Shown in pieces: positions 11,991 through 60,711 of a stretch of DNA of 64,000 nucleotides. The stretch's first letter is position 1; each line of letters starts with the position of its first letter. This stretch comes from a plasmid, in sequence record NZ_CP022047.2, one strand, 5' to 3'. The translations under genes were made by a program, and so were the position numbers. Under the pieces are notes generated by a model that saw only the letters and a list, made by a program, of their open reading frames with translations, had not been told where the DNA came from and ran no database searches.

Positions 11991-14162
11991 CTTCTTTTCG
12001 AAATCAAACACAATTTTATATTCTTCATTGAGTTTAAGTTTCGCATCAAACTTTTTACCTGCTTTACTTTTAAATCCTTTGATAACCTTACTTTTATGCG
12101 TCTCTAACAATGATTGAATGATTGTTTCTGATAGTGTTTTACCACTGATTACCCCAAACAATATATATTCACATGTCGAAGAATCACATGTATAAAAAGG
12201 CTGTCCTTTCTTAGATTTTCTTTTTAACAGGTGTCCTTGACGACATTTCGGACATTTACCAATCATTTGTGATTTTTGAAGTGATTCTAATGAAATACCT
12301 GATACGGATGTTTTGATCTGTTGATCAAAATTATTAACTTCTTCTTTCAATGACACTTTTATTTTTTCTAAAAATTTGTCTTGTACGTCTTTTTTTCCTA
12401 TTTCTGAAATGGTTTTAAGTTCATGTTCCCAATGCGCAGTCATTTCAACAGATGCTAGTTGGCTATTTTTTAATGCTTCACACAACATGTTACCTTTTTC
12501 TGTGATATACAACTTTTTCTTCCTTACTTCCATATAGCCTTTATCAATAAGACCTTTGACAATATTCCCTCTAGTAGCCGGTGTACCAATACCACTCACA
12601 TTTTTTAAATCTTTCTTCAATATTTCATCATCTAGTCCATTACTACATGTTTCCATCAATCCACCTTCACCACCAAGAGTAGCTTCTGTGAGATATACTG
12701 GGGGTTTAGTACGACCTTCTTTATTTTCTAATTTAACTTGAATTGTTTGTTTTTCTTGATATGAAGGAATGACTTGTACATCTGTTTCCTTTTCTTCCGT
12801 ATTTTGATATTGTTTCCAACCTTTATCTTTTGTAATAGTTCCTCTCGCTTTAAAAATAACATCTTGACATCTTAACGTTACCTTTGTTTCATCATAGACA
12901 AAATCTGGTTGAAACATGCCTAATGTACGTATAACAACTTCACGATAAATATTTTGTTGTGCCGAACTAAATGCCGATAAATCTTTCAATGTTGGGATTG
13001 TTTTAGTAGGTACAATGGCATAGTGTTCTAATACTTTATCACTATCAACGAAACGTTTTCTAGGCTCTAAATTTGTAAAATTCTCTTGAATATCTACAAT
13101 ATTGGCATAATCTGAAATTCGTTCCTTCAAATATTTAAACTCACTTGTTGTTATAAGATCACTATCTGTCCTCGGATAGCTTAAAAATCCCTTGTCATAT
13201 AGTGATTGCACAATTGAAAGTGTCTCATCTAATGTATATCCCCATTTTTGGTTCGCAACTTTCTGTATACCACCTAACTTAAATAGTTTTGGCGCAGGCG
13301 TTTGTTTTTCTTTTACTTCTACTTTATCAATTTGCCCAGTCATTTCATCTTTTAAGTCATGCTCTTCTTTAAATGCGTCATAAGTTTCTTTTGATTCAAA
13401 GCGTCGATCGTATTTAAATCGACATAATGGATTGGATGTCTCATCAATCGCAAATAATTCATAGAAAGGCTTTGATTCAAACGACTCAATCGCTTTATTT
13501 CTGTTATATACCATAAATAATGTTGGTGTTTGAACACGACCAACTGAAAAGACGCCAACATTTATCCCCATGTTTTGCATCGTAATTGAAGTCAATCTTG
13601 TCATATTAATACCTACAAGCCAGTCCGCAACACCTCTTGCTTGTGCCTCTAAATAGTAAGGGTACGTTTCTGCCCCAGTCTTCAATGATTGAAATGATGT
13701 TCTTAACCCTTCAGGTTCTTGTGTATTTGCCCAAAGTCTTTTGATTGTTATATCCCTATTTTTTATATTTGGAATTTGATTCATGACATATCGTGCGATA
13801 GCTTCACCTTCTCGATCTGGGTCAGTCGCAATAATGAATACATCTTGTGATGTTAATGATTCACAAAGACCTTCTATCTTATAAAACTGTTGAGAGGCAT
13901 AAGGTGATACTTTGTACTTCATTCTTTTAGGAATGAATGGTAATGTTTCTTTTTTCCACGCTTTTAATGATGAATCATAATCTTCCATATCGGCTAGTTG
14001 AATAAGATGTCCAACACACCACGTCACAATCACATCACCTTCTAAAATATTTGTTGTAACTTCAAAATAACCATCCTTCTTTTTAAATGTCCCTAAAGCT
14101 TCCGCATATTTTAAAGCTTGATTAGGTTTTTCAGCTAGTATGACGTGTTTCATTTCTATCAT
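11988..14162 (-). CDS. topB: Type IA DNA topoisomerase (topoisomerase III) of a conjugative element
   Basis: N-terminal Toprim ('MKHVILAEKPNQA...'). Central TopA core. C-terminal zinc ribbon 'CPKCRQG...CDSSTCEY'. Confidence 0.85.
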   Translation of the reverse strand: MIEMKHVILAEKPNQALKYAEALGTFKKKDGYFEVTTNILEGDVIVTWCVGHLIQLADMEDYDSSLKAWKKETLPFIPKRMKYKVSPYASQQFYKIEGLCESLTSQDVFIIATDPDREGEAIARYVMNQIPNIKNRDITIKRLWANTQEPEGLRTSFQSLKTGAETYPYYLEAQARGVADWLVGINMTRLTSITMQNMGINVGVFSVGRVQTPTLFMVYNRNKAIESFESKPFYELFAIDETSNPLCRFKYDRRFESKETYDAFKEEHDLKDEMTGQIDKVEVKEKQTPAPKLFKLGGIQKVANQKWGYTLDETLSIVQSLYDKGFLSYPRTDSDLITTSEFKYLKERISDYANIVDIQENFTNLEPRKRFVDSDKVLEHYAIVPTKTIPTLKDLSAFSSAQQNIYREVVIRTLGMFQPDFVYDETKVTLRCQDVIFKARGTITKDKGWKQYQNTEEKETDVQVIPSYQEKQTIQVKLENKEGRTKPPVYLTEATLGGEGGLMETCSNGLDDEILKKDLKNVSGIGTPATRGNIVKGLIDKGYMEVRKKKLYITEKGNMLCEALKNSQLASVEMTAHWEHELKTISEIGKKDVQDKFLEKIKVSLKEEVNNFDQQIKTSVSGISLESLQKSQMIGKCPKCRQGHLLKRKSKKGQPFYTCDSSTCEYILFGVISGKTLSETIIQSLLETHKSKVIKGFKSKAGKKFDAKLKLNEEYKIVFDFEKK

Positions 14163-25368: not shown

Positions 25369-27896
25369 CGATGATATTTCCCTTGATTTTTTTGTAGTTT
25401 CACACGCTCGACAGAAGTCATATTGCGTGCACGATCCACACGTGATGGTTTCACTTGTGACGACTTTATTTGTGATGGTTGTACGTTTTCTCTGTGCACA
25501 TGTTGTTCATTCACAATTTCTTTTTCTTTAATAATCTGCTGAGTCGGTTGTGCTGATCCTTTAGGCATTGTGACAGGTTTGCCTTGTTTAGTTGAATACG
25601 TCTCGTTTTTGCGATTAATGACTCGTTTTGTTTCTTTAGTTTGCTTGTGAGGCGCTTTTGATTGTGGTGACTTCACTGATTGTTGGTTACCACTTTGTTT
25701 ATGTCCAGAATTCGTACTTGTTGCCTTTGTTGTCGTACTTGTTTGACCTTGTTTAATCTGTGAACGTCCACTAGAGACACCTTGTTGAACAGATGCTTTT
25801 TGTACACTATCATCTTTACTATCTTTATGTGCTGTGGTATCTTCCGCTGTTGTCGGTATATTCTCTATTTCATCATGTGTAACAACACCATTATCGTCTT
25901 TTGATTTTACATTAGACGTATCAAGTGTTGTCGCATTTCTGTCATGGTCATTATGTGCTACTTTTTGTTCATGTTCATTTTGTTGAACATGTTGTATACC
26001 CTCTTGATCCGTTTGTTCATTGTCTAATTGTTGATGTGTGCCATCCTGATTTGAATGTACAACACCTTCATCATGACTCGTATCATTTGAGCTTTCTGGT
26101 ACATCTACATGTTCTGGTGTGTCATCTGATGTTGAAACTGTTTCATTAGAAACACCTTCTTGTGAGTCCTCAACTTCATCAGTCGTCGTTGTTGTATCAA
26201 CATCAACGGATTGACTGCCTTGACCACCTTTTGTGTGTTGTTGTGAACTCACATTATCTGATTCGCCTACGACCACCTGTTGCGCATTCGTTTCTTGATT
26301 AACATGAGCTTGTGCTTCTGTTTCTGCACCATAGGAAGTATCAACTGATCCCTCTTGGTCATCTAAAGTTGGCGCTGTATAAGTTTCATGTGGTTTCATA
26401 TTTAAATCTTTCTCCATTTGACTAATCGTGCCTGTACCTAAATCATTTGCGACACCTTTCGCACGACTTTGTTCAAAACTATCTTTTGCGTAGCCACCTA
26501 ATGTACCAACACCACCTTTTGCTTGATGTCCAATATTGCTCGCTAAATTCTTACCGCCTTGTGCGACTGCACTTGTTGCTTTCGTTGCACCAGTCATATG
26601 TGCCATTTTAGAACCTGCTTTCATCGCAACAGCACCACCTGCAATACCTGCCATCAATGATTTCTGTCCATCTTTAACACCTGTATCGATACCTAATATT
26701 TTCTTCGCTTCATTAGGACCATCTACAACCGCAATCGCAAGTCCTATATAACAAATGACTTTTGCCAAGAATGAAAGATCTGATTGGAATATCGCACCTG
26801 TTAAAATCATAAACATTTTAAAAATAATCAATACCAAACCAATAACCGCATAGTTTGTAACGATATTTGAAAGCAGTTGTTTCACACGTTGAAGGGTGTT
26901 TAAATCCGCCGCAGCTACCCACGGTGCGATCACTTTTTGAAAGGCAATTTCAAACGATAATCGAACGACTTTAAATGATGTAAAGACTTGTACCGCGATT
27001 AACGTCCCTAATAATAACCATGTGAAAAAGAAGCTCGTCTGATAACGTTGATAGTAATTACTAAAAGGTGCGGAAGATTGTTTAAAGAAACCTTTCCCAA
27101 AGCCGTCACTGATTTTAGATAACTCATTCGATTTACCATCACTGCTCGTGACAAGGTTATTGTTAAATACATAATACTTATATTTTTCTGAATTACTATC
27201 ACTTGCTTTTTTTAATTTTGCGATATTTTCATAATATCGATATCCCTCTTCTTTTGCTTTTTTATCATCAACATTAGGATTTATCTTTTCTCCAAATTGA
27301 CGACGTCCACTCGTAAATGAGCCATCCGTTAAATCATTGTTGATGCCATTTTTAGCCTTTTTAAAATCATTTTGGGCAAGCCAATATAAATCGGTTGTAT
27401 TCATGGCGACGATTTGTGTCGATAAATACTTCATGTCTTTACCCTCAATGAGGTTGCCATCGCCACCATTAATTGATTTCCCGACTTCTGTTACACCTTG
27501 TGAAAATTTATAAGCACTTGAGAAAATAGTCGGTAATGCGATGATGAAACAAATCGCAAGCACTGAATTTACCGCAATTTGGGCGAGTTTTGTTTGTTGT
27601 TTCCCAAACATCATCGATAAACCAATGATTAAAATGGTTAATCCAAAAACTGCCCATACAATTGGCATCATCGTTTCACTTAAATTCGTAATGGCTTTAT
27701 TGTTTAATAAACCACCGAAAGTCACAATTTCATTGAGTAATTTTTCCATCGAAACGCTGATTTTATATAAACCCTTCGTAAAGTACCAACCCATGGACTT
27801 ACAAATATGCACAAGCCAATCAATACCATCATATGATTTAAAAATTTCTTGATTATCTTTAAGGATTTCAATCGCCTTTTTTTTTGATTCACTCAC
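25365..27896 (-). CDS. VirB6-like polytopic membrane protein with a long Ser/Thr/Gln-rich C-terminal extension
   Basis: About six TM helices in the N-terminal 450 aa. Low-complexity hydrophilic tail of ~400 aa. Confidence 0.55.
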   Translation of the reverse strand: MSESKKKAIEILKDNQEIFKSYDGIDWLVHICKSMGWYFTKGLYKISVSMEKLLNEIVTFGGLLNNKAITNLSETMMPIVWAVFGLTILIIGLSMMFGKQQTKLAQIAVNSVLAICFIIALPTIFSSAYKFSQGVTEVGKSINGGDGNLIEGKDMKYLSTQIVAMNTTDLYWLAQNDFKKAKNGINNDLTDGSFTSGRRQFGEKINPNVDDKKAKEEGYRYYENIAKLKKASDSNSEKYKYYVFNNNLVTSSDGKSNELSKISDGFGKGFFKQSSAPFSNYYQRYQTSFFFTWLLLGTLIAVQVFTSFKVVRLSFEIAFQKVIAPWVAAADLNTLQRVKQLLSNIVTNYAVIGLVLIIFKMFMILTGAIFQSDLSFLAKVICYIGLAIAVVDGPNEAKKILGIDTGVKDGQKSLMAGIAGGAVAMKAGSKMAHMTGATKATSAVAQGGKNLASNIGHQAKGGVGTLGGYAKDSFEQSRAKGVANDLGTGTISQMEKDLNMKPHETYTAPTLDDQEGSVDTSYGAETEAQAHVNQETNAQQVVVGESDNVSSQQHTKGGQGSQSVDVDTTTTTDEVEDSQEGVSNETVSTSDDTPEHVDVPESSNDTSHDEGVVHSNQDGTHQQLDNEQTDQEGIQHVQQNEHEQKVAHNDHDRNATTLDTSNVKSKDDNGVVTHDEIENIPTTAEDTTAHKDSKDDSVQKASVQQGVSSGRSQIKQGQTSTTTKATSTNSGHKQSGNQQSVKSPQSKAPHKQTKETKRVINRKNETYSTKQGKPVTMPKGSAQPTQQIIKEKEIVNEQHVHRENVQPSQIKSSQVKPSRVDRARNMTSVERVKLQKNQGKYHR

Positions 27897-49838: not shown

Positions 49839-49960
49839 ATTACCCCTCCCCTACTACATATTGAATAAAGCATAATGAATATTGCGTAATGAATAAAGTA
49901 TATTGAATATTGCATAATATATAATGTATACATATAGAAAATAAGCTGAAACTATCACGC

Positions 49961-50275
49961 TTATTTCTTTTTCTTTAAAGCCTTTTTTAATTTATAGTCA
50001 TTTTCTTGTTCAATAATTAACTTTAGTTTTTCTTGTTCACTTTTACCAATTTGATTTATATATAAGTTAAGTGCCTCTTCTAAAATGTTATCATAGGAAT
50101 CTTCTAGTTGAATTTTTTTAAGGGCTAATATCTTACTATGTGTTGCTCCCTTAACCCTCAATGTTGTTTGAGGTAAAGTCATTTCTTTTTCCTGTTGTGT
50201 TATTAATGTATTATCAAATTTTGATTGTGTTGTTTCGTTTGTATTTAATAAAGATTGTTTTTTCATTTGTATCAT
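49961..50275 (-). CDS. Ribbon-helix-helix ParG-like partition adaptor/centromere-binding protein
   Basis: 'TTLRVKGATHSKILALK' beta-strand-helix start. Its stop overlaps parA. Confidence 0.4.
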   Translation of the reverse strand: MIQMKKQSLLNTNETTQSKFDNTLITQQEKEMTLPQTTLRVKGATHSKILALKKIQLEDSYDNILEEALNLYINQIGKSEQEKLKLIIEQENDYKLKKALKKKK

Positions 50276-51066
50276 TCGCTTTCATAGTTATTTATTTCAG
50301 ATATTAATTCTTGTGTAATTGCTTCATACATAGATATGACTTTTCGATCATGGATATCTTCTTCTTTTATACCTGATATATCCCAACCCTTAACTCTTTC
50401 TCTTTGATAAACAAAACTTTTAAACAAATGTTCTCCATATTTTTCTGAAGCATTGTTAATAATATGTTCATCTACTTTTCCGTTATTTTTAAACATCACT
50501 GGTAATATACCAGCAATTTCAAAGTCATTTTGATAGATTTGTTTAAACTGTGATAAATGTCCAATGAACTTTTCCACAGCTTTAAAACTTCTACTATGAG
50601 TCTGCATAACAATTAATGAATAATCGCAAGCATAAATTGCACTATTTGAATAATCACTTATTGTCGGTGGTGTATCAATCAGTATGTAATCGTAATTATC
50701 TTTAATTGGTGCAATAAAATCACTAATTACTTTTGCACCATTAATTCTATTATATCCGGATTGTTCTAATAATTGAGGAAACCCAATCATATTGAAGTTC
50801 GATGGGATCAAATCTAAATTATCAGTTAGGTTTAATATTATTGATTCAACGGATTTTTGATCTTTTAGAGCATAATATAAGTCTTCCTTATTTTCAGTAT
50901 TGTAAGTGAGTAATAGCGTTTCCGTAGCATCTGCTTGTGGATCTAAATCTAAAACAAGAGTCTTATAGTTTAGCTTTTGTGACAAAACATATGCAATACC
51001 TAAAGTAGTAGATGTCTTTGAAACGCCACCCTTAAAATTATTGATAGATACGACTATTGCCATCAA
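50272..51066 (-). CDS. parA: ParA/Soj-family partition ATPase (type Ib)
   Basis: Deviant Walker A 'NFKGGVSKTSTT'. 264 aa. Confidence 0.8.
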   Translation of the reverse strand: MMAIVVSINNFKGGVSKTSTTLGIAYVLSQKLNYKTLVLDLDPQADATETLLLTYNTENKEDLYYALKDQKSVESIILNLTDNLDLIPSNFNMIGFPQLLEQSGYNRINGAKVISDFIAPIKDNYDYILIDTPPTISDYSNSAIYACDYSLIVMQTHSRSFKAVEKFIGHLSQFKQIYQNDFEIAGILPVMFKNNGKVDEHIINNASEKYGEHLFKSFVYQRERVKGWDISGIKEEDIHDRKVISMYEAITQELISEINNYESE

Positions 51067-51254
51067 ATCTCCTCCTTAATATACTTTTATACTAACATAT
51101 ATTATTCATTATACAATATATTTAATACATTAAATTTGAATAATGTATGCAAATAACTACAAGTTATAGCTTAAAAAATAATTATATATACATTTCAGTG
51201 TAGAGAATCTATAATACAACTGACAGTCAGTCAATTGTATTAGGCGATTATTCT

Positions 51255-51476
51255 GTGTGGATGATTTATATGGTGATAGGTTCTCTTATTTGTCACACAC
51301 TTTTAAGTGCGGCTATAGCATTAATCGTTTTTAGAGAAGTTTCAGATGAAATCAAGTCTAAAAGGAATGTATTTTTCGATTTAATATTTAGTTTCAATGT
51401 ACAATTAGTCAGTTTCTTTATTTATATTCTAATTGTACTATTCGGATTATTCATTTGGATTTTCAATCCATACTAG
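51255..51476 (+). CDS. Small two-TM membrane peptide
   Basis: 73-aa hydrophobic ORF. Confidence 0.2.
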   Translation: MWMIYMVIGSLICHTLLSAAIALIVFREVSDEIKSKRNVFFDLIFSFNVQLVSFFIYILIVLFGLFIWIFNPY

Positions 51477-51606
51477 AATTTTATTATTTTTTTGAGGGCA
51501 GGGGGTGTAGTGGAGAAACGTGATATACAAAACCATGACCTCTTAGCTGGACACAAAAAACCCCTTCTTACTTAAATATGAGTAGGAAGGGGTTTAAATG
51601 GTTATT

Positions 51607-51745
51607 AATTAAAACGGGAATTAATTAATATTAGGATTTGTTATCAATCATGGAAACTTATACGACAAAAATGGTAGGTTCTTTCGACCATAGGTCGATT
51701 ACAGCAAAAATTATTTGAATTTTCTATACTTAGACTAATATTATT
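51607..51745. repeat. Copy of the 2033-2165 repeat, including a degenerate LysM-gene 3' end
   Basis: About 85% identical to 2033-2165: 'aaaacggga(a)ttaattaatat..ggaaacttatacgacaaaaatgg..ctttcgacc..gtcgatta'. Confidence 0.6.
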
Positions 51746-51951
51746 TAAACAATTTCAAAGTTATTATTATTTAAGTTATTATACTTAGTAGGCTGGAGAT
51801 CCTTCACACCATTAAAGAGAAAATCTCCACTTAGGAAATGATAAATAACGGTAAATAATCTGAGATTAATTGATTTCTACTGCTTTTAAGTATATCACTT
51901 AATTATTTCTATTACTTGGGTTGATTTTCTTCTAAATATAGCATCTTAACT

Positions 51952-51979
51952 AATCACATGTTACATGTAACATGTGATT
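51952..51979. promoter_or_regulatory. Perfect 28-bp palindrome upstream of RepA_N rep (operator or centromere-like site)
   Basis: 'AATCACATGTTACATGTAACATGTGATT'. Further 'ttacatgtgatt' half-sites lie at 51989-52000. Confidence 0.5.
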
Positions 51980-52250
51980 AGTTATTTGTTACATGTGATT
52001 TATATAATGTTACATTATTTGTTGTGTATTTAAGTTGAATTTGTTACTCTAAAAATAGAAAAAACATTTAGTTGTTGGTAGCAACTAAATGTTTTGTAAA
52101 GGTAATAAAACGTTCGCACATAATTTGAACTTATTTAATATATAAATTATAACTCGTAAATGGATGACTATCAACTATGTAGTTTAAAATTTCAATTGAA
52201 AACGTTTTATTATCTCAATCCAATTTTAGATATGGAGAGAGGCTATACTT

Positions 52251-53264
52251 ATGTCAACTAAATCAACATCTTATAGAAGTGTCAGAAAATCAAAGTTTAC
52301 TCAAATTTCAAATCAACTATTAAATGATGAAGAACTTACATTAGAGTCAAAAGCATTATTATCAATTTTTTTATCTAATTCTGATAATTGGGAACTCCAT
52401 ATGTCTGAAATTATAAAACGTTCTAAAAATGGACGTGATGCTCATTATTCAGCGCTTAAAAAATTAATAATTGCTGGTTATATCGCACGCTTAGAATTTA
52501 AGCAAAATATTAACAACCAGTTTGTGAAACTTGAATACATATTTAGTGATAGTAAAGAAGACATATGGCAAGGAATAGAGGAAGCTAAAGTAATTGCTAA
52601 AGAAAATAATCAATCTATCGTACTTACGTATAAAAACATAAGCTGTGAAAAAATAGATACTAATAATGACTTAAACCCGTATCCGGAATTCCAGTATACG
52701 GAGGAATCTAATCCCAAAATTCCGTTTACTGAAAATCCGGATGCGGCTAATACGAATACGGAAATTGCGAATACAGAAAATCAGTATATAAATAATACTA
52801 ATATAAATAATACTAATAAAAAAAATACTAATATAAATAATGGAATGAATGGAGTGAGTGCTATTAAAAATTCCTATCAAAAATCACAACAATCAATCCA
52901 TTCAATCCAAAATGATAACAATTATTTAATTGATGAACAAAAACATTTATTAAAACTATTACCTCAAGACCTTCAAGAATTTGTCAAAACACGATATACA
53001 TTAGAAGATAGTATTAATATAATCAATAAAATTATACAAGCTAAAAGAGCGGCAGGGGATAGACGTAATGATAATTTATTTTTCTATTTTGAACACAACA
53101 ACGATCTATCAGAAGCCATCATTGAAATACTAATTTCTGTAAACAGAGAAATGAAAAAGAAAAGAGAATCTGTGGAATCAATGCTAGGATACTACTATAA
53201 TGCATTAGTCAATGGATTGGAAGAATTTCATTTTACAATGGAAGCTAGAAAAAATATGAAATAG
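52251..53264 (+). CDS. RepA_N-family plasmid replication initiator
   Basis: N-terminal 'KFTQISNQLLND..LTLESKALLSIFLSN' is typical of Firmicute RepA_N initiators. Asn-rich linker. C-terminal host-specificity domain. Confidence 0.8.
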   Translation: MSTKSTSYRSVRKSKFTQISNQLLNDEELTLESKALLSIFLSNSDNWELHMSEIIKRSKNGRDAHYSALKKLIIAGYIARLEFKQNINNQFVKLEYIFSDSKEDIWQGIEEAKVIAKENNQSIVLTYKNISCEKIDTNNDLNPYPEFQYTEESNPKIPFTENPDAANTNTEIANTENQYINNTNINNTNKKNTNINNGMNGVSAIKNSYQKSQQSIHSIQNDNNYLIDEQKHLLKLLPQDLQEFVKTRYTLEDSINIINKIIQAKRAAGDRRNDNLFFYFEHNNDLSEAIIEILISVNREMKKKRESVESMLGYYYNALVNGLEEFHFTMEARKNMK

Positions 53265-53621
53265 CTAAGTAATATATTCATTTAAGACGAAATAAGCTTT
53301 TTTACAAAAAAATACTAAAAAACATACTTTAATTAATATGTTTTTTAGTATTCATAGTTCCAATTTTATGAATGTTTAGTGGGAAAGTTATCAAAAATTG
53401 AATGGTAATTAATACCATGTTCATTACGATACCATAATCTTATAGAAAAATAAAATATATAATTGTTTTTTCTCCAAAACTTTTCAAACTTAAAATTTAA
53501 CGATAAGTCAAAATCCCACAATAATTATAAGTTATAAACTATAATATAAGTAAACATTGTTTACTTATATTATACATAATTAACACAAAATAATATTAGC
53601 TGAGTAAAGTGGGGGATTTCA

Positions 53622-53954
53622 ATGAAAGTAGAAGAGTTTATAGAATATGAGTTGCACAGAAAAATTTTCCTTACTCCTATAAAAGATAATTATCAACTAA
53701 CAAGAGATGAGTTACTTTTACTTGGTATTTTTCAGAAATTTGATTACATTAATGAAGTTTACCTAACCGATTTTATTTATTTAGCAAACAAGTATCAACT
53801 TCATTACACAAAACCATTAAAATCATTAGCTAGTAAAAATTTTTTTAAGAAAAAGAGACTTATTGAAGATGAACGCACAGTCATTCTATATGATATAAAT
53901 TATAGGAAGATAAATGATATATTTAATCATATTAATTCAGAAATTTTCAATTAG
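53622..53954 (+). CDS. Small MarR-like winged-helix protein (paralogue A)
   Basis: 110 aa. 'LTRDELLLLGIF...LIEDERTVILYDI' HTH-wing pattern. Paralogue of 56402..56752. Confidence 0.35.
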   Translation: MKVEEFIEYELHRKIFLTPIKDNYQLTRDELLLLGIFQKFDYINEVYLTDFIYLANKYQLHYTKPLKSLASKNFFKKKRLIEDERTVILYDINYRKINDIFNHINSEIFN

Positions 53955-54065
53955 AAACATTTCAAGGGGGAGCATAAGCAAAAAAATGCCTACAAAGTCT
54001 TAGACTATGTAGGCTCTAAAACATGTGATTATATATTCACATGTTTTATTAAATACAGTAGTTTA

Positions 54066-54446
54066 CTATCCTAGATAATAAAAAGTGATGGTCATGATCA
54101 TAATACATACAATTTTATAGCTTTCATTAATTAAAATGAGCTTTATGGATTTCATTTCAAATAAATAATTCTTTAAACTAGATGCAACAGCAATAAAAGC
54201 GATTACAACGCCCCCGAATATTACATTTAAATTTATATGGTGAAGTAAATAAAAAATTAAGAAAGCCACTAATATTTCTGTGATTAATGAAATTAACATT
54301 TCCTTCTTCCCACCATCACTAGATTCAATTGTTTCTTTATTTACCCCAACTTCACGCATCCATACCTTACCAAATATAATTGAATACCAAAGTGCTCCTA
54401 CCATAAATGCTAAAATTCCAGATAATACTATGGCCACAATATTCAT
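54066..54446 (-). CDS. Small membrane protein
   Basis: 126 aa with four TM helices. Confidence 0.25.
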   Translation of the reverse strand: MNIVAIVLSGILAFMVGALWYSIIFGKVWMREVGVNKETIESSDGGKKEMLISLITEILVAFLIFYLLHHINLNVIFGGVVIAFIAVASSLKNYLFEMKSIKLILINESYKIVCIMIMTITFYYLG

Positions 54447-54478
54447 TTATGTTCTTCCTCCATAGATTCTTTATAGAC

Positions 54479-54895
54479 TCAATCAATAAATTGGACTATT
54501 ACTTTATCATTTTGTTTTTTAGGCATTAATATCAACATAATTTTACCTATAAAATTAAGACCTTTGTTTTGGCCACTATAAGTAAACTTAGTTTCATTTT
54601 CATTTATCTTTTCTAATATATAGTCAGCCTCGATATCAAACATTTTACCTAACTGAAACCCAGAACGGTTATGTTTATAATTCGAAGTGTTTGTATATTC
54701 TAAATCCGTAACAACATATTTCATAATTCTTTTTCCTTCTTTATATGTCTGTTCATATGTGGATCCAACTACATTTTCTGTCTTATTTATTACTTTCATA
54801 TCGACTATTTGAGGCATTATACGTTTTATATTTTCTAAATCAAATAAACTCCATACATTTTCTATATTAGTTGGTATAATAATTGTTTTTACCAT
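54479..54895 (-). CDS. SRPBCC (Bet v1/START-like) ligand-binding protein
   Basis: 138-aa ORF with the beta-sheet/long C-helix pattern typical of SRPBCC. Low confidence. Confidence 0.3.
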   Translation of the reverse strand: MVKTIIIPTNIENVWSLFDLENIKRIMPQIVDMKVINKTENVVGSTYEQTYKEGKRIMKYVVTDLEYTNTSNYKHNRSGFQLGKMFDIEADYILEKINENETKFTYSGQNKGLNFIGKIMLILMPKKQNDKVIVQFID

Positions 54896-54921
54896 TTAAG
54901 CATAAAAAGCCCCCCCTTTAC

Positions 54922-55470
54922 TTAAGCACAACGAATAATATCAGTTAACATTTCTCCAACAAGCTTTTTTCTTTTCTCGACGTCTACACTATTTTCTTTA
55001 ATAAAAATATATGATTGTTCTGCGGCGTGCTCAATTGTTCCTACAATAATTTGTGCTTTTAAATTAGTAGAGGTATCTTTTTTACTAAATAGTAATTCTT
55101 CTACACGATCATAAAACTTAGAATAGATACTTTCCCACTCATTTAAATTTCCACTTCCAATAAATGAATGATATAACGATTCAATAATATCTTTATTTTT
55201 TTTATTATAGTTAAATATCACTTCTATAATGTTATTAATAGTTTTTGACTTATCCTTATTATAGGGGATTTCATTTAGTTCATTAACCATCTCGTCTAAA
55301 ATGACGCTTGCAAAGTATGAAACTAAATCTAATTTTGAATCAAAATAGGTATAAAATGTTCCTTTACCAAATCCAGCATCATCAACGATGTCAGATACAT
55401 TCATTTTATGAAAACCTTTAGTTATTAATAAATGTTGTGCGGATTTAACTAGCTTATCTTTTGTGTACAA
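54922..55470 (-). CDS. TetR-family transcriptional regulator (paralogue A)
   Basis: N-terminal HTH 'LITKGFHKMNVSDIVDDAGFGKGTFYTYFDSK'. Confidence 0.75.
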   Translation of the reverse strand: MYTKDKLVKSAQHLLITKGFHKMNVSDIVDDAGFGKGTFYTYFDSKLDLVSYFASVILDEMVNELNEIPYNKDKSKTINNIIEVIFNYNKKNKDIIESLYHSFIGSGNLNEWESIYSKFYDRVEELLFSKKDTSTNLKAQIIVGTIEHAAEQSYIFIKENSVDVEKRKKLVGEMLTDIIRCA

Positions 55471-55717
55471 TATAAAACCTCCAATTTTTTCTAAGTTAAT
55501 TATAATAAATCTTTACTAAAATTTATATATACTAATAGACCTTTAATTATTTATTGCTAATCTTGCTTTAATAATTATATAAAATAAGTGACTACTAGTC
55601 AAAATTAACGAGAAATTTTTTATTAATTTTACACTATTCTCTTGCATTTTATAAATAATTATTATATATTAATATACATCAACCGACGGTCAGTCGGAAA
55701 AAATAAAGGAGATTTAT

Positions 55718-56056
55718 ATGAAAAATCCATGGTTTTATGTTTTTCTTACATGTGTACTAGAAGTTGTATGGGTTTTTGGTTTTAATGTTGCTAACACTTG
55801 GTGGCATTGGATTCCCATTGTTTTAGTTATTGTAGTTGATTTTTATTTATTATCTAAGGCTTGTGAAAGTTTACCAACGGGTACAGTGTATGCTGTGTTT
55901 GCAGGTGCTGGAACGGTTGGAACTGTCTTAATGGATACATTTATTTTCAATAGTACGATGACATTTTCTAAGTTATTTTTTATTTCTTTAGTAGTATTAG
56001 GTGTTATTTTTCTAAAGCTTTTAGATAATTCTAATGAATCGGAGGTAGTAAAGTAA
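55718..56056 (+). CDS. SMR-family small multidrug-resistance protein, subunit 1 of a paired pump
   Basis: 112 aa with four TM helices. EmrE/YkkC-like. Confidence 0.65.
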   Translation: MKNPWFYVFLTCVLEVVWVFGFNVANTWWHWIPIVLVIVVDFYLLSKACESLPTGTVYAVFAGAGTVGTVLMDTFIFNSTMTFSKLFFISLVVLGVIFLKLLDNSNESEVVK

Positions 56057-56371
56057 ATGGGATGGATATTGGTTATACTAGCTGCACTATTTGAAGTAGT
56101 AGGAATAATTGGTTTGAAAAAATTTAGTAGTGAAAAAAACTTAAATAATGGAATTCTTCTGTTTGTAGGTTTTATTGGCTCTTTAACACTATTGTATTCT
56201 GCTTTTAATTATATACAAATGAGTATTGCTTATTCTGTATGGGTAGGTATTGGAACAGCATCAGCTGTAGTTTTAAATATGGTTTTCTTTAATGAACCTA
56301 AAAATATGGGAAGAATTTTAAGCCTTATATTAATAATTATAGGAGTCGTAGGACTAAAAGCTGTTTCTTAA
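56057..56371 (+). CDS. SMR-family small multidrug-resistance protein, subunit 2
   Basis: 104 aa with four TM helices. 'FEVVGIIGLK' carries the conserved Glu in TM1. Adjacent to subunit 1 with no gap. Confidence 0.65.
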   Translation: MGWILVILAALFEVVGIIGLKKFSSEKNLNNGILLFVGFIGSLTLLYSAFNYIQMSIAYSVWVGIGTASAVVLNMVFFNEPKNMGRILSLILIIIGVVGLKAVS

Positions 56372-56401
56372 AATTCTAAGTAAAATAAAGGGGAATAAAG
56401 T

Positions 56402-56752
56402 GTGGAAGACTTCATAAAGTATGAATTAAATAGAAAACTATATATCAATAAAATAGAAAATAGTTTTGATATCAATAGAGAAGAGCTATTGATACTGTCG
56501 ATTATTAAAGAAATAAATAGTGATAAGATATATTTAAGTGAATTGTTATATCATATAAATAAGTACAATTTATACTATACTAAACATTTAAAATCACTTA
56601 GAAAAAAGAATTACTTTACCAAAAAAAGATTACCTGAAGATGAAAGATCTGTTATTATACAAGATATTAACTATGAAAAAATTGAAGATTTATTTGACGA
56701 TATTTATTCAATAGTATTTGATACAAATGAAAAAAATGACAAAAGGACGTAA
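56402..56752 (+). CDS. Small MarR-like winged-helix protein (paralogue B)
   Basis: 116 aa. Aligns along its length with 53622..53954 ('EELLILSII...LPEDERSVIIQDI'). Confidence 0.35.
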   Translation: MEDFIKYELNRKLYINKIENSFDINREELLILSIIKEINSDKIYLSELLYHINKYNLYYTKHLKSLRKKNYFTKKRLPEDERSVIIQDINYEKIEDLFDDIYSIVFDTNEKNDKRT

Positions 56753-56799
56753 GACTGTGTTCTTTTGTCATTTTTATTTTTATGCCAATTATCTGAAAA

Positions 56800-57366
56800 T
56801 TAAAGTTGGATATTTTTAGATAATTCGTAAACAACGGCTTTCCTTTTTTTTATATGTTCATCACTTTCATTTAAAAATATATAGCCTTGTTCAGCAGAAT
56901 ATTCTATCATTCCAACTACTGTTTGAGTTTTTATCAATGTCTCTTTACTATATTCTTCGAATAATAATTTTTCTATACAAGAATAAAACTTTCTATACAT
57001 ATTTTCCCATTCATTTAAATTACTAGTTCCCATATAAGAATGAAATAAGGCTTTAATAATTTCACTGTTTTTTCTATTATTTTCAAAGATTATTTCAATA
57101 ATCTGAAATAGAGTTTCTGATTGGTTGCTATTATAATTTAATTTTTCAAGTTCTGTGATCATGTCATCCAAGATACTATTTGCAAAATATCCAATTAATT
57201 CATTCTTAGATTTAAAGTATGTGTAGAAAGTTCCTTTACCAAAACCAGCTTCATGGGATATATCAGAAACATTCATGTTGTGGAAACCATTCGTTATTAG
57301 CAAGTTTTTTGCTGATTCAACTATCTTTTCTTTTGTACTCAATATATACACCTCCAATTTAATCAA
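56800..57366 (-). CDS. TetR-family transcriptional regulator (paralogue B)
   Basis: 'LITNGFHNMNVSDISHEAGFGKGTFYTYFKSK' is near-identical in its HTH to paralogue A. Confidence 0.75.
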   Translation of the reverse strand: MIKLEVYILSTKEKIVESAKNLLITNGFHNMNVSDISHEAGFGKGTFYTYFKSKNELIGYFANSILDDMITELEKLNYNSNQSETLFQIIEIIFENNRKNSEIIKALFHSYMGTSNLNEWENMYRKFYSCIEKLLFEEYSKETLIKTQTVVGMIEYSAEQGYIFLNESDEHIKKRKAVVYELSKNIQL

Positions 57367-57467
57367 TAACTTTAATTATAATAAATTGACAGAAAAAAAC
57401 AAATACTTATTAAAAAAAATGTTTTTTAGTAGAAAGAACTTCTAATTATATATATATTATTTAATTC

Positions 57468-57533
57468 TTAATTATTATAACAGAAACATGTGACATGTTA
57501 CTTGTAACATGTCACATGTTTCTGTTATAATTA
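57468..57533. promoter_or_regulatory. ~66-bp near-perfect palindrome immediately upstream of the second parA (operator or centromere-like site)
   Basis: 'aattattataaCAGAAACATGTGACATGTTACttGTAACATGTCACATGTTTCTGttataattact'. Confidence 0.5.
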
Positions 57534-57552
57534 CTTTATCATAGGAATAGAG

Positions 57553-58353
57553 GTGTGCTTCGTGTCTGTTATTACAATTGGAAACTTTAAAGGTGGAGTA
57601 GGTAAAACAACTGTTTCAACATTACTATCTTATATAGCATCAGAAAGATATGATAAAAAAGTTTTACTGATTGATTTTGATCCTCAAGGAAATGCTACTC
57701 AAATTATGAAAAGAACATATCCGGAAGCCTTAGAAGAAACAAAAAGTTTTATTGAGACTCTAAAGTCAGGTGAATTAAGTGAAAGCATGATAAATTTATC
57801 AAATAATCTTTCTCTGCTACCTGCTGATTCTTCATTAGCTAATTTATCGGATATAATTGCAAAAACTGACATTGTAAAAAAAAGATATATACTTAAAACA
57901 GTTATTGATCAAATTAAAATAGACTATAATTTTGATTACATTTTCATCGATGTTCCACCAACTATAAATTCAGATTTTACTAATAATGCTGTATATGCAA
58001 GTGACTATATTGCAATGGTATTTCAAACACAACAATCAGCATATGAAAGTAGTTTGTCTTTTGTAAACTTTTTACGGGATAGAAAAAAAGAGTCCAATCT
58101 ACCCTTTGAATTAATTGGTGCTATACCAGTACTAATTAAGAGAAATGGAAAAATTGATGAACAAATTTTAAAAATATCTAAAGAAACCTTTTCAAATGCT
58201 CTTTTCAAAAACCAGATATTTCAAAGAGAAAGAATCAAGAAATTCGGTGCAGAAGGTATCAGGGACAAAGATACACATGATAAGAGAGTACTACATATGC
58301 TTGAAGAAATTTATATAGAGCTTATTGAAAGAATAGAACTCATTGAAGGATAG
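57553..58353 (+). CDS. parA: ParA/Soj-family partition ATPase, second cassette
   Basis: 'GNFKGGVGKTTVST' deviant Walker A. The start may instead be the GTG at 57562, which has SD 'AGAGGTG'. Confidence 0.8.
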   Translation: MCFVSVITIGNFKGGVGKTTVSTLLSYIASERYDKKVLLIDFDPQGNATQIMKRTYPEALEETKSFIETLKSGELSESMINLSNNLSLLPADSSLANLSDIIAKTDIVKKRYILKTVIDQIKIDYNFDYIFIDVPPTINSDFTNNAVYASDYIAMVFQTQQSAYESSLSFVNFLRDRKKESNLPFELIGAIPVLIKRNGKIDEQILKISKETFSNALFKNQIFQRERIKKFGAEGIRDKDTHDKRVLHMLEEIYIELIERIELIEG

Positions 58354-58605
58354 GTGATTAATATGGCAGGGTTTTTAGACGAGATAAAAGTAGAAAATAA
58401 TAAGAAGAAAAGTTTTTTAGATGATATAGATACATCTGCTGTAAAATATACGGAAAATTACAAGCCCGTGGCGAAAAGTACAACAATGAGAGTAGATACT
58501 CTCATTAAAAAAAGGTTAAATCAAATGGCATTAGATAAAGATACTTCAATAAAAGCAATATCAGATCAAGTACTAAATGAATTTTTGGAGAAAAATAATT
58601 ATTAA
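58354..58605 (+). CDS. Ribbon-helix-helix ParG-like partner of the second ParA
   Basis: 'TTMRVDTLIKKRLNQMAL' RHH start. Its start abuts the parA stop. Confidence 0.4.
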   Translation: MINMAGFLDEIKVENNKKKSFLDDIDTSAVKYTENYKPVAKSTTMRVDTLIKKRLNQMALDKDTSIKAISDQVLNEFLEKNNY

Positions 58606-58666
58606 AAGAGACCATCGTGTATTAACACGATGGTCTTTTATTCATCATTGCTTTAAAAATATTTAT

Positions 58667-59125
58667 TTAGCTAGTTACTTTTAAGTAATTTAATTTTTGC
58701 AACGTTATATATTTAATGATTAGAATAGATGATCCAAAATGGAGAAGTGCAAATGCTATAGGAGCTGTATAGTCTATATGAAAGTTATGAACAAATGTAT
58801 ATTTCAATATTATATTCGATATAAAATTACATAATAATAATATTATAGATACATAACTACCTTTCATCATCCATCTATTATTTATATTACAGAAATAAAT
58901 ATCAAAACTTAATCCTTTTAAATAACCAAATAATAGACCAAATGTGATTGTTAATAGCGAAAAATATATTAATGGCAAATTGAAGGAGTTATTAACTGTA
59001 TTTTTTAATAGAATAACTAACCCAGCAAAAATGACTATACAACTAAACAAATAGGAGGTATTCAACTTCCTATTCATCAGTATTCTTAAACTAAATGTAA
59101 AAAAAATTATGATATATATATACAT
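58667..59125 (-). CDS. Membrane protein
   Basis: 152 aa with four or five TM helices. Confidence 0.25.
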   Translation of the reverse strand: MYIYIIIFFTFSLRILMNRKLNTSYLFSCIVIFAGLVILLKNTVNNSFNLPLIYFSLLTITFGLLFGYLKGLSFDIYFCNINNRWMMKGSYVSIILLLCNFISNIILKYTFVHNFHIDYTAPIAFALLHFGSSILIIKYITLQKLNYLKVTS

Positions 59126-59215
59126 TCATTACTCCTTTTGCGTTCATTGAATTGTATTATAAACTATGTTAATCTTCTGTAATAGACTCATAGTCAAATT
59201 AAGGGAGAATTTTAT

Positions 59216-59731
59216 ATGAAAAATTTCAAATGGTTTAGCTTAGTATCTGGTAGTATTTTTATATTAATTGGTATTTTATGTTTCCTTTTTCCATTAGAGA
59301 GTATAAAGAACATGTTTATATTAATAGGCATATTTTTAATTTTTAATGGAATTTTAGAAATATTTGTATTTCAAAAGTTAAAAGAAATAATTAACTTTTC
59401 TAGGTTTTGGTCTATTTTATTAGGTGTATTACACATACTAACTGGCTTATTTATAATTATGAATTTAGAAGCTAGTTTTGTTGTTTTATCTTATATCCTA
59501 TCTATTTGGTTCATATTATCATCGATATCAAATATTTATAAAGCAACTCCTTTAGAAAAATCAAATAAGCTCTATCATAGCTTAAGTATATTATTAAATA
59601 TTTTAGGTATAGCTATTGGTATAATATTATTATTTAATCCCTTCATAGTTATAGTATTAATTTCATTTTTAATAAGCTGTTACTTTATAATTTTTGGGTT
59701 AAGTCATATCATTTATGCATTAGCCAAATAA
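59216..59731 (+). CDS. HdeD/DUF308-like membrane protein
   Basis: 171 aa with six TM helices. 'GILEIFVF' and 'GVLHILTGLFII' repeats are typical of DUF308. Confidence 0.35.
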   Translation: MKNFKWFSLVSGSIFILIGILCFLFPLESIKNMFILIGIFLIFNGILEIFVFQKLKEIINFSRFWSILLGVLHILTGLFIIMNLEASFVVLSYILSIWFILSSISNIYKATPLEKSNKLYHSLSILLNILGIAIGIILLFNPFIVIVLISFLISCYFIIFGLSHIIYALAK

Positions 59732-59842
59732 ATATTACTCAAAATATATGGAAATACATTTTATACTTACTAAGAAGTAGTCTAAATTTTAAAAATTATA
59801 TAAGTAATTTCATATCTATCTGTACTTAGCAGATAGATATTT

Positions 59843-59895
59843 TTATACAAATCACATGTAACAAGTTACTTGTTACATGTGATTTGTATAAAAAG
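59843..59895. promoter_or_regulatory. ~53-bp near-perfect palindrome upstream of the aquaporin gene
   Basis: 'tttttatacaaATCACATGTAACAAGTtACTTGTTACATGTGATttgtataaaaa'. Related to the palindromes at 51952 and 57468. Confidence 0.45.
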
Positions 59896-59977
59896 CAACT
59901 ATAATATATAAAAAAGCAATTGATAATAATTGACTTCCACTATATAATTATTTTCTAAATTAAGTAGGAGGTTATTT

Positions 59978-60664
59978 ATGAACAAGTTTTTTGCTGAGTT
60001 ATTTGGTACGTTTATTTTGGTATTTTTTGGTACGGGAACAGCTGTGATGACTGTTTTAAATCCAGAAAATAATGTTGGACATCTAGGCATAGCAATAGCG
60101 TTTGGTTTAACGATCGTTGCTGCTTGCTATAGTATTGGCCATATTTCAGGAGGGCACTTAAACCCTGCTATTTCTTTGGCAATGTATATGGACAAAAGAA
60201 TTAATTTAAAAACATTGATAGGTTACATGATTTTTCAAATAATTGGAGCAATTATAGCTACAACAATCATTTGGATAATTTTACATACAACAAATATAAA
60301 TGTCTCTAATTATACTTATGGACAAAATACGTTAGGATCTTTAAATGTATTAGGGGCTTTGTTGACTGAATTTATATTAAGTACAGTATTCATATTCGTT
60401 GTTTTAAGTGTGACAAAAGAAAGTTTTACTTCTTCAAATATTGCAGTCTTAATCATTGGTTTAACATTAACTTTAGTACATTTAATAGGAATTCCGTTAA
60501 CTGGTACATCTGTTAACCCAGCAAGAAGTATAGGGCCTGCTATTTTTGCTCAAGATAATGCTTTAAAAGAGTTGTGGATTTTTATATTAGCACCATTATT
60601 AGGAGCAATATGTGCGACATTCTTACATAAGTCATTTGAAAATAAAGGTTATAAAAACAAGTAA
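59978..60664 (+). CDS. MIP-family channel (aquaporin/glycerol-facilitator-like)
   Basis: Two NPA boxes ('GGHLNPAIS' and 'SVNPARS') and six TM helices. Confidence 0.85.
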   Translation: MNKFFAELFGTFILVFFGTGTAVMTVLNPENNVGHLGIAIAFGLTIVAACYSIGHISGGHLNPAISLAMYMDKRINLKTLIGYMIFQIIGAIIATTIIWIILHTTNINVSNYTYGQNTLGSLNVLGALLTEFILSTVFIFVVLSVTKESFTSSNIAVLIIGLTLTLVHLIGIPLTGTSVNPARSIGPAIFAQDNALKELWIFILAPLLGAICATFLHKSFENKGYKNK

Positions 60665-60711
60665 CGGAATCGTTACTTGTTTTTACAACATAAGGGAGGG
60701 TTTTATTAATA

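Follow-up and report, generated by a model that had tools for sequence, protein, structure and literature searches.

Three palindromic heptad arrays as candidate centromere-like sites of a delta/omega-type partition system on plasmid NZ_CP022047.2

Introduction

Within a 64,000-nucleotide stretch of the plasmid sequence record NZ_CP022047.2 (hereafter the window, meaning the whole stretch analysed), three unusually long palindromes lie 5' of a replication gene (rep), of a second gene for a partition ATPase (parA-2) and of an aquaporin gene of the MIP family. The question raised by this arrangement is what such related sequences do at three different genes, and which protein, if any, reads them. 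The initial annotation of the window had described three long dyads upstream of genes, with a shared core and a common binding protein. All three are present, as the three longest inverted repeats within 48-64 kb, and the shared core is borne out by nine of the 11 occurrences of GTAACATGTGA (at most one mismatch; 1.6 expected), which fall inside them. It is likely that the palindromes are parS-like arrays of 7-bp subsites for the ribbon-helix-helix (RHH) protein of 80 amino acids encoded directly 3' of parA-2, here termed ParB-2, and that they form the cis-acting part of a delta/omega-type (type Ib) partition system. No paper describing these sites was found in the literature searched.

The palindromes are arrays of contiguous heptads

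The sites, which have no strand, are best described heptad by heptad. Site 1 (51945..52000) contains seven strict contiguous heptads (51952-52000), AATCACA TGTTACA TGTAACA TGTGATT AGTTATT TGTTACA TGTGATT, with one degenerate heptad, CTTAACT, directly in front of the strict array. An inverted-repeat search places within it a perfect palindrome of 38 bp (51947-51984; arms of 19+19 nt, spacer 0), and an additional 'half site' on its right-hand side keeps the register of the heptads in the palindrome itself. The array lies 251-267 bp 5' of the rep ATG and ~60 bp 5' of the terminator hairpin of a putative antisense RNA. Site 2 (57474..57531) is a 58-bp palindrome that reads TTATAAC AGAAACA TGTGACA TGTTACT TGTAACA TGTCACA TGTTTCT GTTATAA and includes four strict heptads (57489-57516). 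In the same search its arms are perfect (28+28 nt, 57474-57501 / 57504-57531) around a 2-nt centre, the outer arms being TATAAT boxes in mirror image, and the GTG start codon of parA-2 follows 22 bp downstream. Site 3 (59840..59894) is a 55-bp palindrome with five strict heptads (59850-59884) in the series TTATACA AATCACA TGTAACA AGTTACT TGTTACA TGTGATT TGTATAA; its arms are likewise perfect (27+27 nt, 59840-59866 / 59868-59894), with a 1-nt centre, and it is located 1.24 kb 3' of parB-2 and 84 bp 5' of the MIP ATG.

The distances to the genes had been given correctly in the initial annotation (267 bp to rep, 22 bp to parA-2 and 84 bp to the MIP gene). The extents are here revised: the palindrome of site 1 is 38 bp rather than 28, that of site 2 is 58 rather than ~66 and that of site 3 is 55 compared with ~53, and the two central mismatches ascribed to site 2 are replaced by perfect 28-nt arms round a 2-nt centre. 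A more consequential change concerns what the dyads are. Each had been viewed as one operator of exceptional length, whereas four to seven contiguous 7-bp subsites, as in the parS of omega, fit them better. The unit is TGTNACA, and AATCACA/TGTGATT cap the ends of two of the arrays (sites 1 and 3). The unusual length of the palindromes follows from this anatomy, because TGTNACA is self-complementary and symmetric arrays of it are automatically long palindromes.

These arrays are far from what is expected by chance. The motif ACWWGTNACWWGT has nine matches in the window against 0.12 expected, and four contiguous WRTNAYW heptads match seven times against 0.00 expected; every one of these matches lies inside the three sites. 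Arrays of at least three WRTNAYW heptads number exactly three in the 64-kb window against 0.2 in shuffled sequences, and no comparable heptad array occurs elsewhere in the 64 kb (expected ~0). Two further candidates were considered. The first, at 54017-54048, shares ACATGTGATT, but with a separation of 18 bp its cores do not keep the heptad register, and the genes on either side of it are convergent; it is an inverted repeat, AAAACATGTGATTAT / ATATTCACATGTTTTA, with its halves facing inward, and is more likely a bidirectional terminator hairpin than a weak fourth site. The second consists of two copies of TCACATGT at 12169-12191, which fall within an open reading frame (ORF) of 724 codons and are taken as chance matches.

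Arrays accompany the ParA-2/RHH pair in related plasmids

The initial annotation had made its proposal of a common binder depend on the motif recurring in homologous plasmids, and it does recur. In 34 related Staphylococcaceae loci with an intact gene pair for a ParA and a protein of 66-80 amino acids, an array, defined as at least three strict contiguous WRTNAYW heptads, lies within 700 bp 5' of parA in 30 cases and within 120 bp in 29. Arrays in these loci number 62 5' of parA versus three elsewhere (181 kb), and three of the four misses (S. saprophyticus) carry GGTAACA TGTAACA TGTAACA, which fails at its first letter alone. Close DNA relatives in PLSDB are confined to parA-2 and the RHH gene, at ~80% identity, on Staphylococcus, Mammaliicoccus and Macrococcus plasmids. 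The replication proteins encoded alongside the arrays differ, comprising RepA_N Reps, PriCT_1 Reps (Macrococcus) and the atypical Rep of the window.

The organization of the arrays in these relatives also gives a context for the number and placement of the sites in the window. In M. sciuri pK8D55P-fosD, S. aureus pPH1-1 and a plasmid of camel S. aureus, rep and parA are divergent and two arrays lie between them: an A-type array (AATCACA, n x TGTWACA, TGTGATT) ~260 bp from rep and a B-type array (AGTAACT TGTNACA ... AGTTACT, then TATAAT) ~40 bp from parA. Relative to rep, site 1 occupies the position of the A-type array in loci L001, L084 and L117. In M. lentus CP120156 the order is A-type array, B-type array, parA, RHH gene and a further array ~66 bp past the RHH stop codon, and pK8D55P-fosD (L238) has two extra arrays, at 27493-27527 and 27726-27746. 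The clade with a 66-amino-acid protein instead carries a non-palindromic triplet, AGTAACA TGTTACA TGTAACA, in two to five copies 5' of parA with a period of 81-96 bp. Judged from these loci, several arrays per plasmid are normal in the ParA-2/RHH family. Of site 3, nothing but the bare 41-bp palindrome matches other plasmids, and there it stands 5' of parA; site 3 itself looks like the counterpart of the array just 3' of the par operon in M. lentus CP120156. The window as a whole appears to hold this three-site set after rearrangement and the insertion of cargo have separated its members: site 1 seems to have been kept with rep and site 2 with parA-2, and site 3 now lies 1.24 kb past the RHH gene. 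Between the two extra arrays of pK8D55P-fosD there is an unannotated ORF of 37 codons (27583-27696) with a good ribosome-binding site (RBS), on which the RHH protein may act as well.

This distribution bears on whether proteins other than ParB-2 might read the sites. The initial annotation had named MarR-like or TetR proteins as possible binders, in which case the palindromes would be operators of a TetR regulator (56800-57366 or 54922-55470) or of a SarA/MarR-like one (53622-53954 or 56402-56752). A TetR gene is indeed divergent from parA-2, with site 2 between them, and operators of TetR and MarR proteins are typically palindromic. Nevertheless, the same arrays are conserved 5' of parA in plasmids that have rep as the divergent gene and lack a regulator of this kind nearby, and are present in related loci without a TetR or MarR neighbour; the 7-bp periodicity over 28-49 bp misfits the operator of a dimeric helix-turn-helix (HTH) protein, and the other paralogous regulators in the window have no arrays beside them. 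Binding by these regulators is therefore considered extremely unlikely. It is also highly improbable that Rep binds the arrays as iterons, that they belong to the origin, or that they serve the products of the first par locus (ParA-1 and a DUF5388 protein, the latter encoded at 49961..50275 and also named for binding tests in the initial annotation). Site 1 does lie between parA-1 and rep, 267 bp 5' of the latter, but arrays are found with the ParA-2/RHH pair whichever of at least three Rep types is present, and no DUF5388 gene occurs in the examined regions of related plasmids that have A-type arrays. The ParA-1/DUF5388 operon, moreover, has 14-bp repeats of its own and of another kind, TA(T/A)TGAATA(A/T)(A/T)G, on both sides, which makes the DUF5388 protein an unlikely binder.

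A third alternative dispenses with a dedicated protein and regards the palindromes as structural DNA, in the form of a cruciform, a hairpin terminator, a recombination site or an oriT mimic. Very stable folds are predicted for the single strands of sites 1-3 (-14.9, -27.2 and -25.4 kcal/mol, with z between -6 and -12), a terminator scan flags sites 1 and 2, and oriT mimics have been reported near the rep-par regions of related plasmids (PMC8407400). However, site 3 lacks a T-run, relatives such as the 66-amino-acid clade with its triplets keep the heptads and not the palindrome, and the tight linkage of the sites to the parA/RHH pair argues for a cognate protein, so that a purely structural role appears very unlikely. 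The cruciform extrusion suggested in the initial annotation is energetically possible but is not needed to explain the sites. An oriT-mimic reading was rejected on the ground that the paper on the pWBG749-type oriT contains no ACATGT or TGTAACA motif and the binding sites differ.

Beyond the Staphylococcaceae, four arrays were found among the distant ParA matches listed (80 loci, 555 kb, none of them from Staphylococcaceae). Three of the four adjoin the par operon of the ParAs closest to ParA-2 (lactobacilli and Pseudoramibacter), two lying just 5' of parA and one just after a small downstream ORF or overlapping its end. Heptad centromeres thus appear, from sequence comparison, to be general for the delta-like ParA clade in Bacillota. 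The three arrays are located at 1478-1505 in L005 (Levilactobacillus), 3887-3914 in L006 (Pseudoramibacter) and 3901-3921 in L012 (Limosilactobacillus), and the small ORF in these loci encodes 71-79 amino acids of RHH-like sequence with an N-terminal (S/D)(L/F)L(D/N) motif. Among the 80 loci listed for metagenome matches to ACATGTNACATGTNACATGT, none encodes a relative of ParA-2 or of the RHH protein. In the S. hominis contigs L097-L101 the RHH gene persists whilst parA is a 46-codon remnant or absent, and these RHH-only loci may be decaying par loci.

The ParA-2 and ParB-2 proteins

The gene parA-2 (57553..58353, plus strand) encodes a Walker-type partition ATPase of 266 residues of the delta/PrgP type. 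AAA_31/CbiA domains extend across the whole protein and there is no N-terminal HTH domain, as is the case for the small ParAs of type Ib systems. Among solved structures it is nearest to delta of pSM19035 (2OZE), which matches residues 7-265 at E=9.8e-36, with the next solved ParA following at 2e-17, and its best NCBIfam model is PrgP, with a score below the cut-off.

The partner gene parB-2 (58363..58605, plus strand) encodes the proposed heptad binder. Its ORF opens at a GTG at 58354, but homologues start at an ATG equivalent to 58363, 10 nt past the parA-2 stop codon, and a hairpin terminator (58606..58639, plus strand) closes the operon. The protein has a predicted β-strand, KSTTMRVD (residues 38-45), followed by helices at 46-59 and 63-77. 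This strand is near-invariant in the family, with T41, R43 and V44 invariant, and it is preceded by a flexible N-terminal tail that carries a conserved GFLD.IDTS.VKYTENY motif. An AlphaFold (AF2) model consists of an extended stretch followed by two helices, with a mean predicted local distance difference test (pLDDT) score of 65, and its Foldseek neighbours are almost all RHH proteins (CopA_SO, ParG (1P94), PutA, CopG, Arc and ParD), fitted with root-mean-square deviations of ~1 Å over ~38 residues, but at E >= 0.3. Sequence searches of Pfam, NCBIfam and the PDB assign ParB-2 to no named family, giving weak matches to Antitox_RHH/CopG and MazE7. On the basis of the structural model, parA-2 would be followed directly by a small centromere-binding protein of RHH fold, in keeping with a type Ib locus.

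The ParB-2 family is small but frequently encountered. A search of 1.84 billion cluster representatives returned only 18 relatives. Relatives of the protein are confined to Staphylococcaceae plasmids and annotated as 'plasmid replication-associated protein' or, occasionally, as RHH or HicB-like. For one RHH variant alone 249 contigs were counted, and relatives are present on 110 of the plasmids in PLSDB.

Relationship to delta/omega and other partition systems

The closest known system is the well-characterized one of pSM19035, in which one dimer of omega, with the β-strand KTVRVR, binds each 5'-WATCACW-3' heptad (PMC9499535). Arrays of seven to 10 such heptads cover the copS, delta and omega promoters, and at least four contiguous heptads are required for activation of the delta ATPase (PMC9499535). 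The window system resembles it in several respects. Its ParA is closest to delta and has a small RHH partner encoded directly 3', and its sites consist of contiguous 7-bp units of mixed orientation, located at several positions on the plasmid with one over the parA promoter. With seven, four and five strict contiguous heptads, all three arrays reach the threshold of at least four that applies to omega (PMC9499535). Moreover, WATCACW describes the heptads at the ends of sites 1 and 3, and two Macrococcus caseolyticus plasmids, the most divergent members of the family, use pure omega-type heptads: AATCACA AATCACT TGTGATT stands 5' of parA and is identical to part of the '7R' parS of pSM19035 (PMC9499535). 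The RHH protein of these plasmids has the β-strand SATIRVRKD, with TIRVR comparable to TVRVR of omega, and one of them bears further arrays, TATCACA AATCACA AGTAACT AATCACA.

The two systems also differ. The main heptad in the window is TGTNACA (with others AGTNACT), and apart from the end heptads it does not conform to WATCACW. The window arrays are perfect palindromes of four to seven units, whereas those of omega contain seven to 10 mixed units. In the window parA and parB follow one another in a single operon, with neither an epsilon/zeta toxin module nor copS, and the window system, in contrast to delta/omega, is known from sequence alone. ParB-2 is not recognized by the Omega_Repress model and its likeness to omega is marginal: the family profile aligns collinearly with omega, but at E=3.5e-4 and 37% probability in pairwise hhalign and at E=0.001 in BLASTP.

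The other type Ib systems are more distant. ParF/ParG/parH of TP228 likewise combines a small Walker ATPase with an RHH protein that has a flexible N-terminal tail, and repeats 5' of the operon double as operator and centromere, as is predicted for the window. However, in parH degenerate tetramer boxes alternate with AT-rich spacers (PMC3130281), whereas the window sites are contiguous heptads without spacers. ParA-2 is also far closer to delta than to the other solved ParAs, and ParF is not among its matches at E<=1e-10. A resemblance to PrgP/PrgO of pCF10 and RepB/RepC of pAD1 lies in the divergence of rep from the operon for parA and a small protein, and in PrgP being the best NCBIfam model for both window ParAs, although the scores are far under its cut-off (180 vs 400 bits). 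In these modules of enterococcal RepA_N plasmids, repeats flank the operon and the iterons are 8-bp units of the TAGTARRR type. The first par locus of the window, with its DUF5388 partner and 14-bp repeats, fits this type better.

Several observations weigh against a delta/omega-type reading of the arrays. ParB-2 gives no Pfam match to Omega_Repress with the E limit raised to 10, and searches of the PDB with the family profile or the ParB-2 sequence do not recover omega. The RHH model is of moderate confidence by its pLDDT, and the E values of its structural matches are weak. The link between strand and heptad is unclean, since an LRVR strand goes together with GTAAC-type heptads in a Levilactobacillus relative, and a simple code in which the last residue of the strand sets the heptad (R for ATCAC, D for GTNAC) was rejected on account of this relative. 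Site 2 has only four strict heptads, loci with an RHH gene but a decayed parA carry no array within 3 kb, a promoter scan found no hexamer pair at threshold for rep near site 1, and the literature searched contains no binding, repression or stability data for the ParA-2/RHH family. On the other side, the co-occurrence of the arrays with the ParA/RHH pair, the heptad register, the RHH-like model of ParB-2 and the delta-like ParA-2 together support an omega-like ParB at the heptads. The suggestion in the initial annotation of one common binder, the RHH protein at 58354..58605, acting at centromere-like par sites is thereby strengthened. Homology of the ParB-2 family to omega is not established, but the functional analogy appears strong, and parA-2, the RHH gene and the arrays are most likely a staphylococcal counterpart of delta/omega with an altered heptad rather than a new mechanism.

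Type Ib par loci of the ParA-2/RHH kind are widespread on staphylococcal plasmids, and the cis site described here provides a concrete candidate centromere and operator for resistance and bacteriocin plasmids. At least three contiguous WRTNAYW heptads offer a simple signature for annotating partition sites and for predicting partition-based incompatibility. The natural series from omega-type through hybrid to TGTNACA arrays is material for the study of drift in RHH-DNA specificity.

The predicted parA-2 promoter and a proposed mechanism

The promoter predicted for parA-2 (57502..57531, plus strand) lies inside site 2. It comprises a -35 box, TTGTAA, an 18-nt spacer and a TG-extended -10 region, TGTTATAAT. 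By consensus match only, 10 of 12 positions agree and the TG is present, and this holds on both strands: a mirror-image promoter is predicted on the minus strand (57501 to 57474), directed toward the divergent TetR gene. The core of site 2, the TATAAT box and the RBS are kept 5' of parA in five related plasmids. Repeats at the par promoter are a feature of type Ib loci, shared here by site 2 and by the parA-proximal arrays of 29 of the 34 relatives.

By analogy with omega, from which binding, stoichiometry, repression and ATPase activation are inferred, one RHH dimer would bind each heptad (TGTNACA, or AATCACA/TGTGATT at the ends) by inserting its β-ribbon into the major groove, and dimers on neighbouring heptads would bind cooperatively. 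Occupancy of site 2 would cover the -35 box and the spacer and so switch off the parA-2 operon, providing autoregulation. Site 2 would thus serve as operator and centromere, and sites 1 and 3 as additional centromere-like sites. The RHH-coated arrays, each of at least four heptads, would constitute partition complexes, in which the flexible N-terminal tail of the RHH protein may stimulate the ATPase of nucleoid-bound ParA-2, leading to segregation of plasmid copies. Sites 1 and 3 might also dampen transcription of rep or of the MIP gene. The long and perfect palindromy would largely be a by-product of a self-palindromic heptad and a symmetric build.

Possible regulation of rep and the aquaporin gene

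A reading that is compatible with partition gives more weight to regulation. Here the RHH protein would be an omega-like global regulator that directly represses rep through site 1, the aquaporin gene through site 3 and the divergent TetR gene through the mirror promoter of site 2, coupling copy number, partition and cargo expression. Omega acts in this way at the copS, delta and omega promoters (PMC9499535). The predicted promoters in site 2 are mirror images on both strands, an array of the site 1 kind lies 5' of the rep leader in every plasmid examined of the 80-amino-acid clade, and in pK8D55P-fosD the upstream extra array ends ~4 bp before a candidate -35 box of the small ORF, as read by eye. 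Set against this, there is no convincing rep promoter over site 1, and the best -35 box of the MIP gene begins 29-36 bp beyond the final heptad of site 3. The relatives of site 3, restricted as they are to the bare 41-bp palindrome, are par-proximal, and for the staphylococcal plasmid aquaporin genes that were matched, similarity to the window does not extend 5' of the gene (the regions upstream of those genes themselves were not inspected). Such a regulon is a possibility of lesser weight. In a stronger form, the RHH ParB would act as a master regulator in the manner of omega, having moved in specificity from WATCACW to TGTNACA, with the three arrays co-regulating partition, rep, TetR and aquaporin and the hybrid arrays representing a snapshot of the specificity switch; its arrays would have no polarity, and hence be perfect palindromes. 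This is rather doubtful.

With respect to rep (52251..53264, plus strand), which lies 3' of site 1 and is a possible target of its regulation, the leader contains two predicted minus-strand elements, a strong promoter at 52174-52146 (TTGATA, 17 nt, TATAAT) and a terminator hairpin at 52095-52061. By its sequence, this pair (52061-52174) carries the signature of antisense-RNA copy control. The same region is conserved in related plasmids. An influence of site 1 on rep is conjectural, since the rep promoter was not located. The label of RepA_N initiator given to the product in the initial annotation is not upheld, as the protein matches neither RepA_N (PF06970) nor any other Pfam or NCBIfam model and only its C-terminal half resembles the Reps of RepA_N plasmids. 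Residues 105-337 are ~50% identical to those Reps, and the N-terminal ~100 residues do not align. The closest full-length relative is a 'nuclease'-annotated Rep of M. lentus CP120156 (41% identity), and from these alignments the window protein looks like a Rep whose N-terminal domain was exchanged or has diverged.

The aquaporin gene (59978-60664, plus strand), identified by domain search, is preceded by a predicted promoter at 59920-59948 (plus strand; TTGATA, 17 nt, TATAAT). A regulatory link between site 3 and this promoter is uncertain, and the association with the aquaporin gene may be incidental, because the promoter lies beyond the array and only the bare palindrome has relatives. Control of rep or of the aquaporin gene by the RHH protein is, by analogy with omega, possible.

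The first par locus and the cargo block

The window also contains a first par locus on the minus strand, made up of parA-1 (50272-51066) and the gene for its DUF5388 partner (49961-50275). Four tandem copies of the 14-bp unit lie just 3' of the parA-1 operon (49859-49912) and two near-copies just 5' of parA-1 (51100-51118). Judged by their arrangement, these repeats probably form a separate centromere, and the replicon would therefore possess two par systems that do not cross-react.

Between rep and parA-2 lies a cargo block (53622-57366) of duplicated regulators, an SMR efflux pair, a DUF1761 gene and a weakly SRPBCC-like gene. The regulators comprise the two TetR genes named above (54922-55470 and 56800-57366), which share the same C-terminal domain, and the two SarA/Rot-like genes (53622-53954 and 56402-56752); the SMR genes are located at 55718-56371. 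When the stretches 1-25000 and 51000-60700 of the window were compared with PLSDB, a resolvase fragment and the parA-2/RHH region alone were matched, at ~77-82% identity. The replicon is apparently a large Staphylococcaceae plasmid of a kind that has been little sampled.

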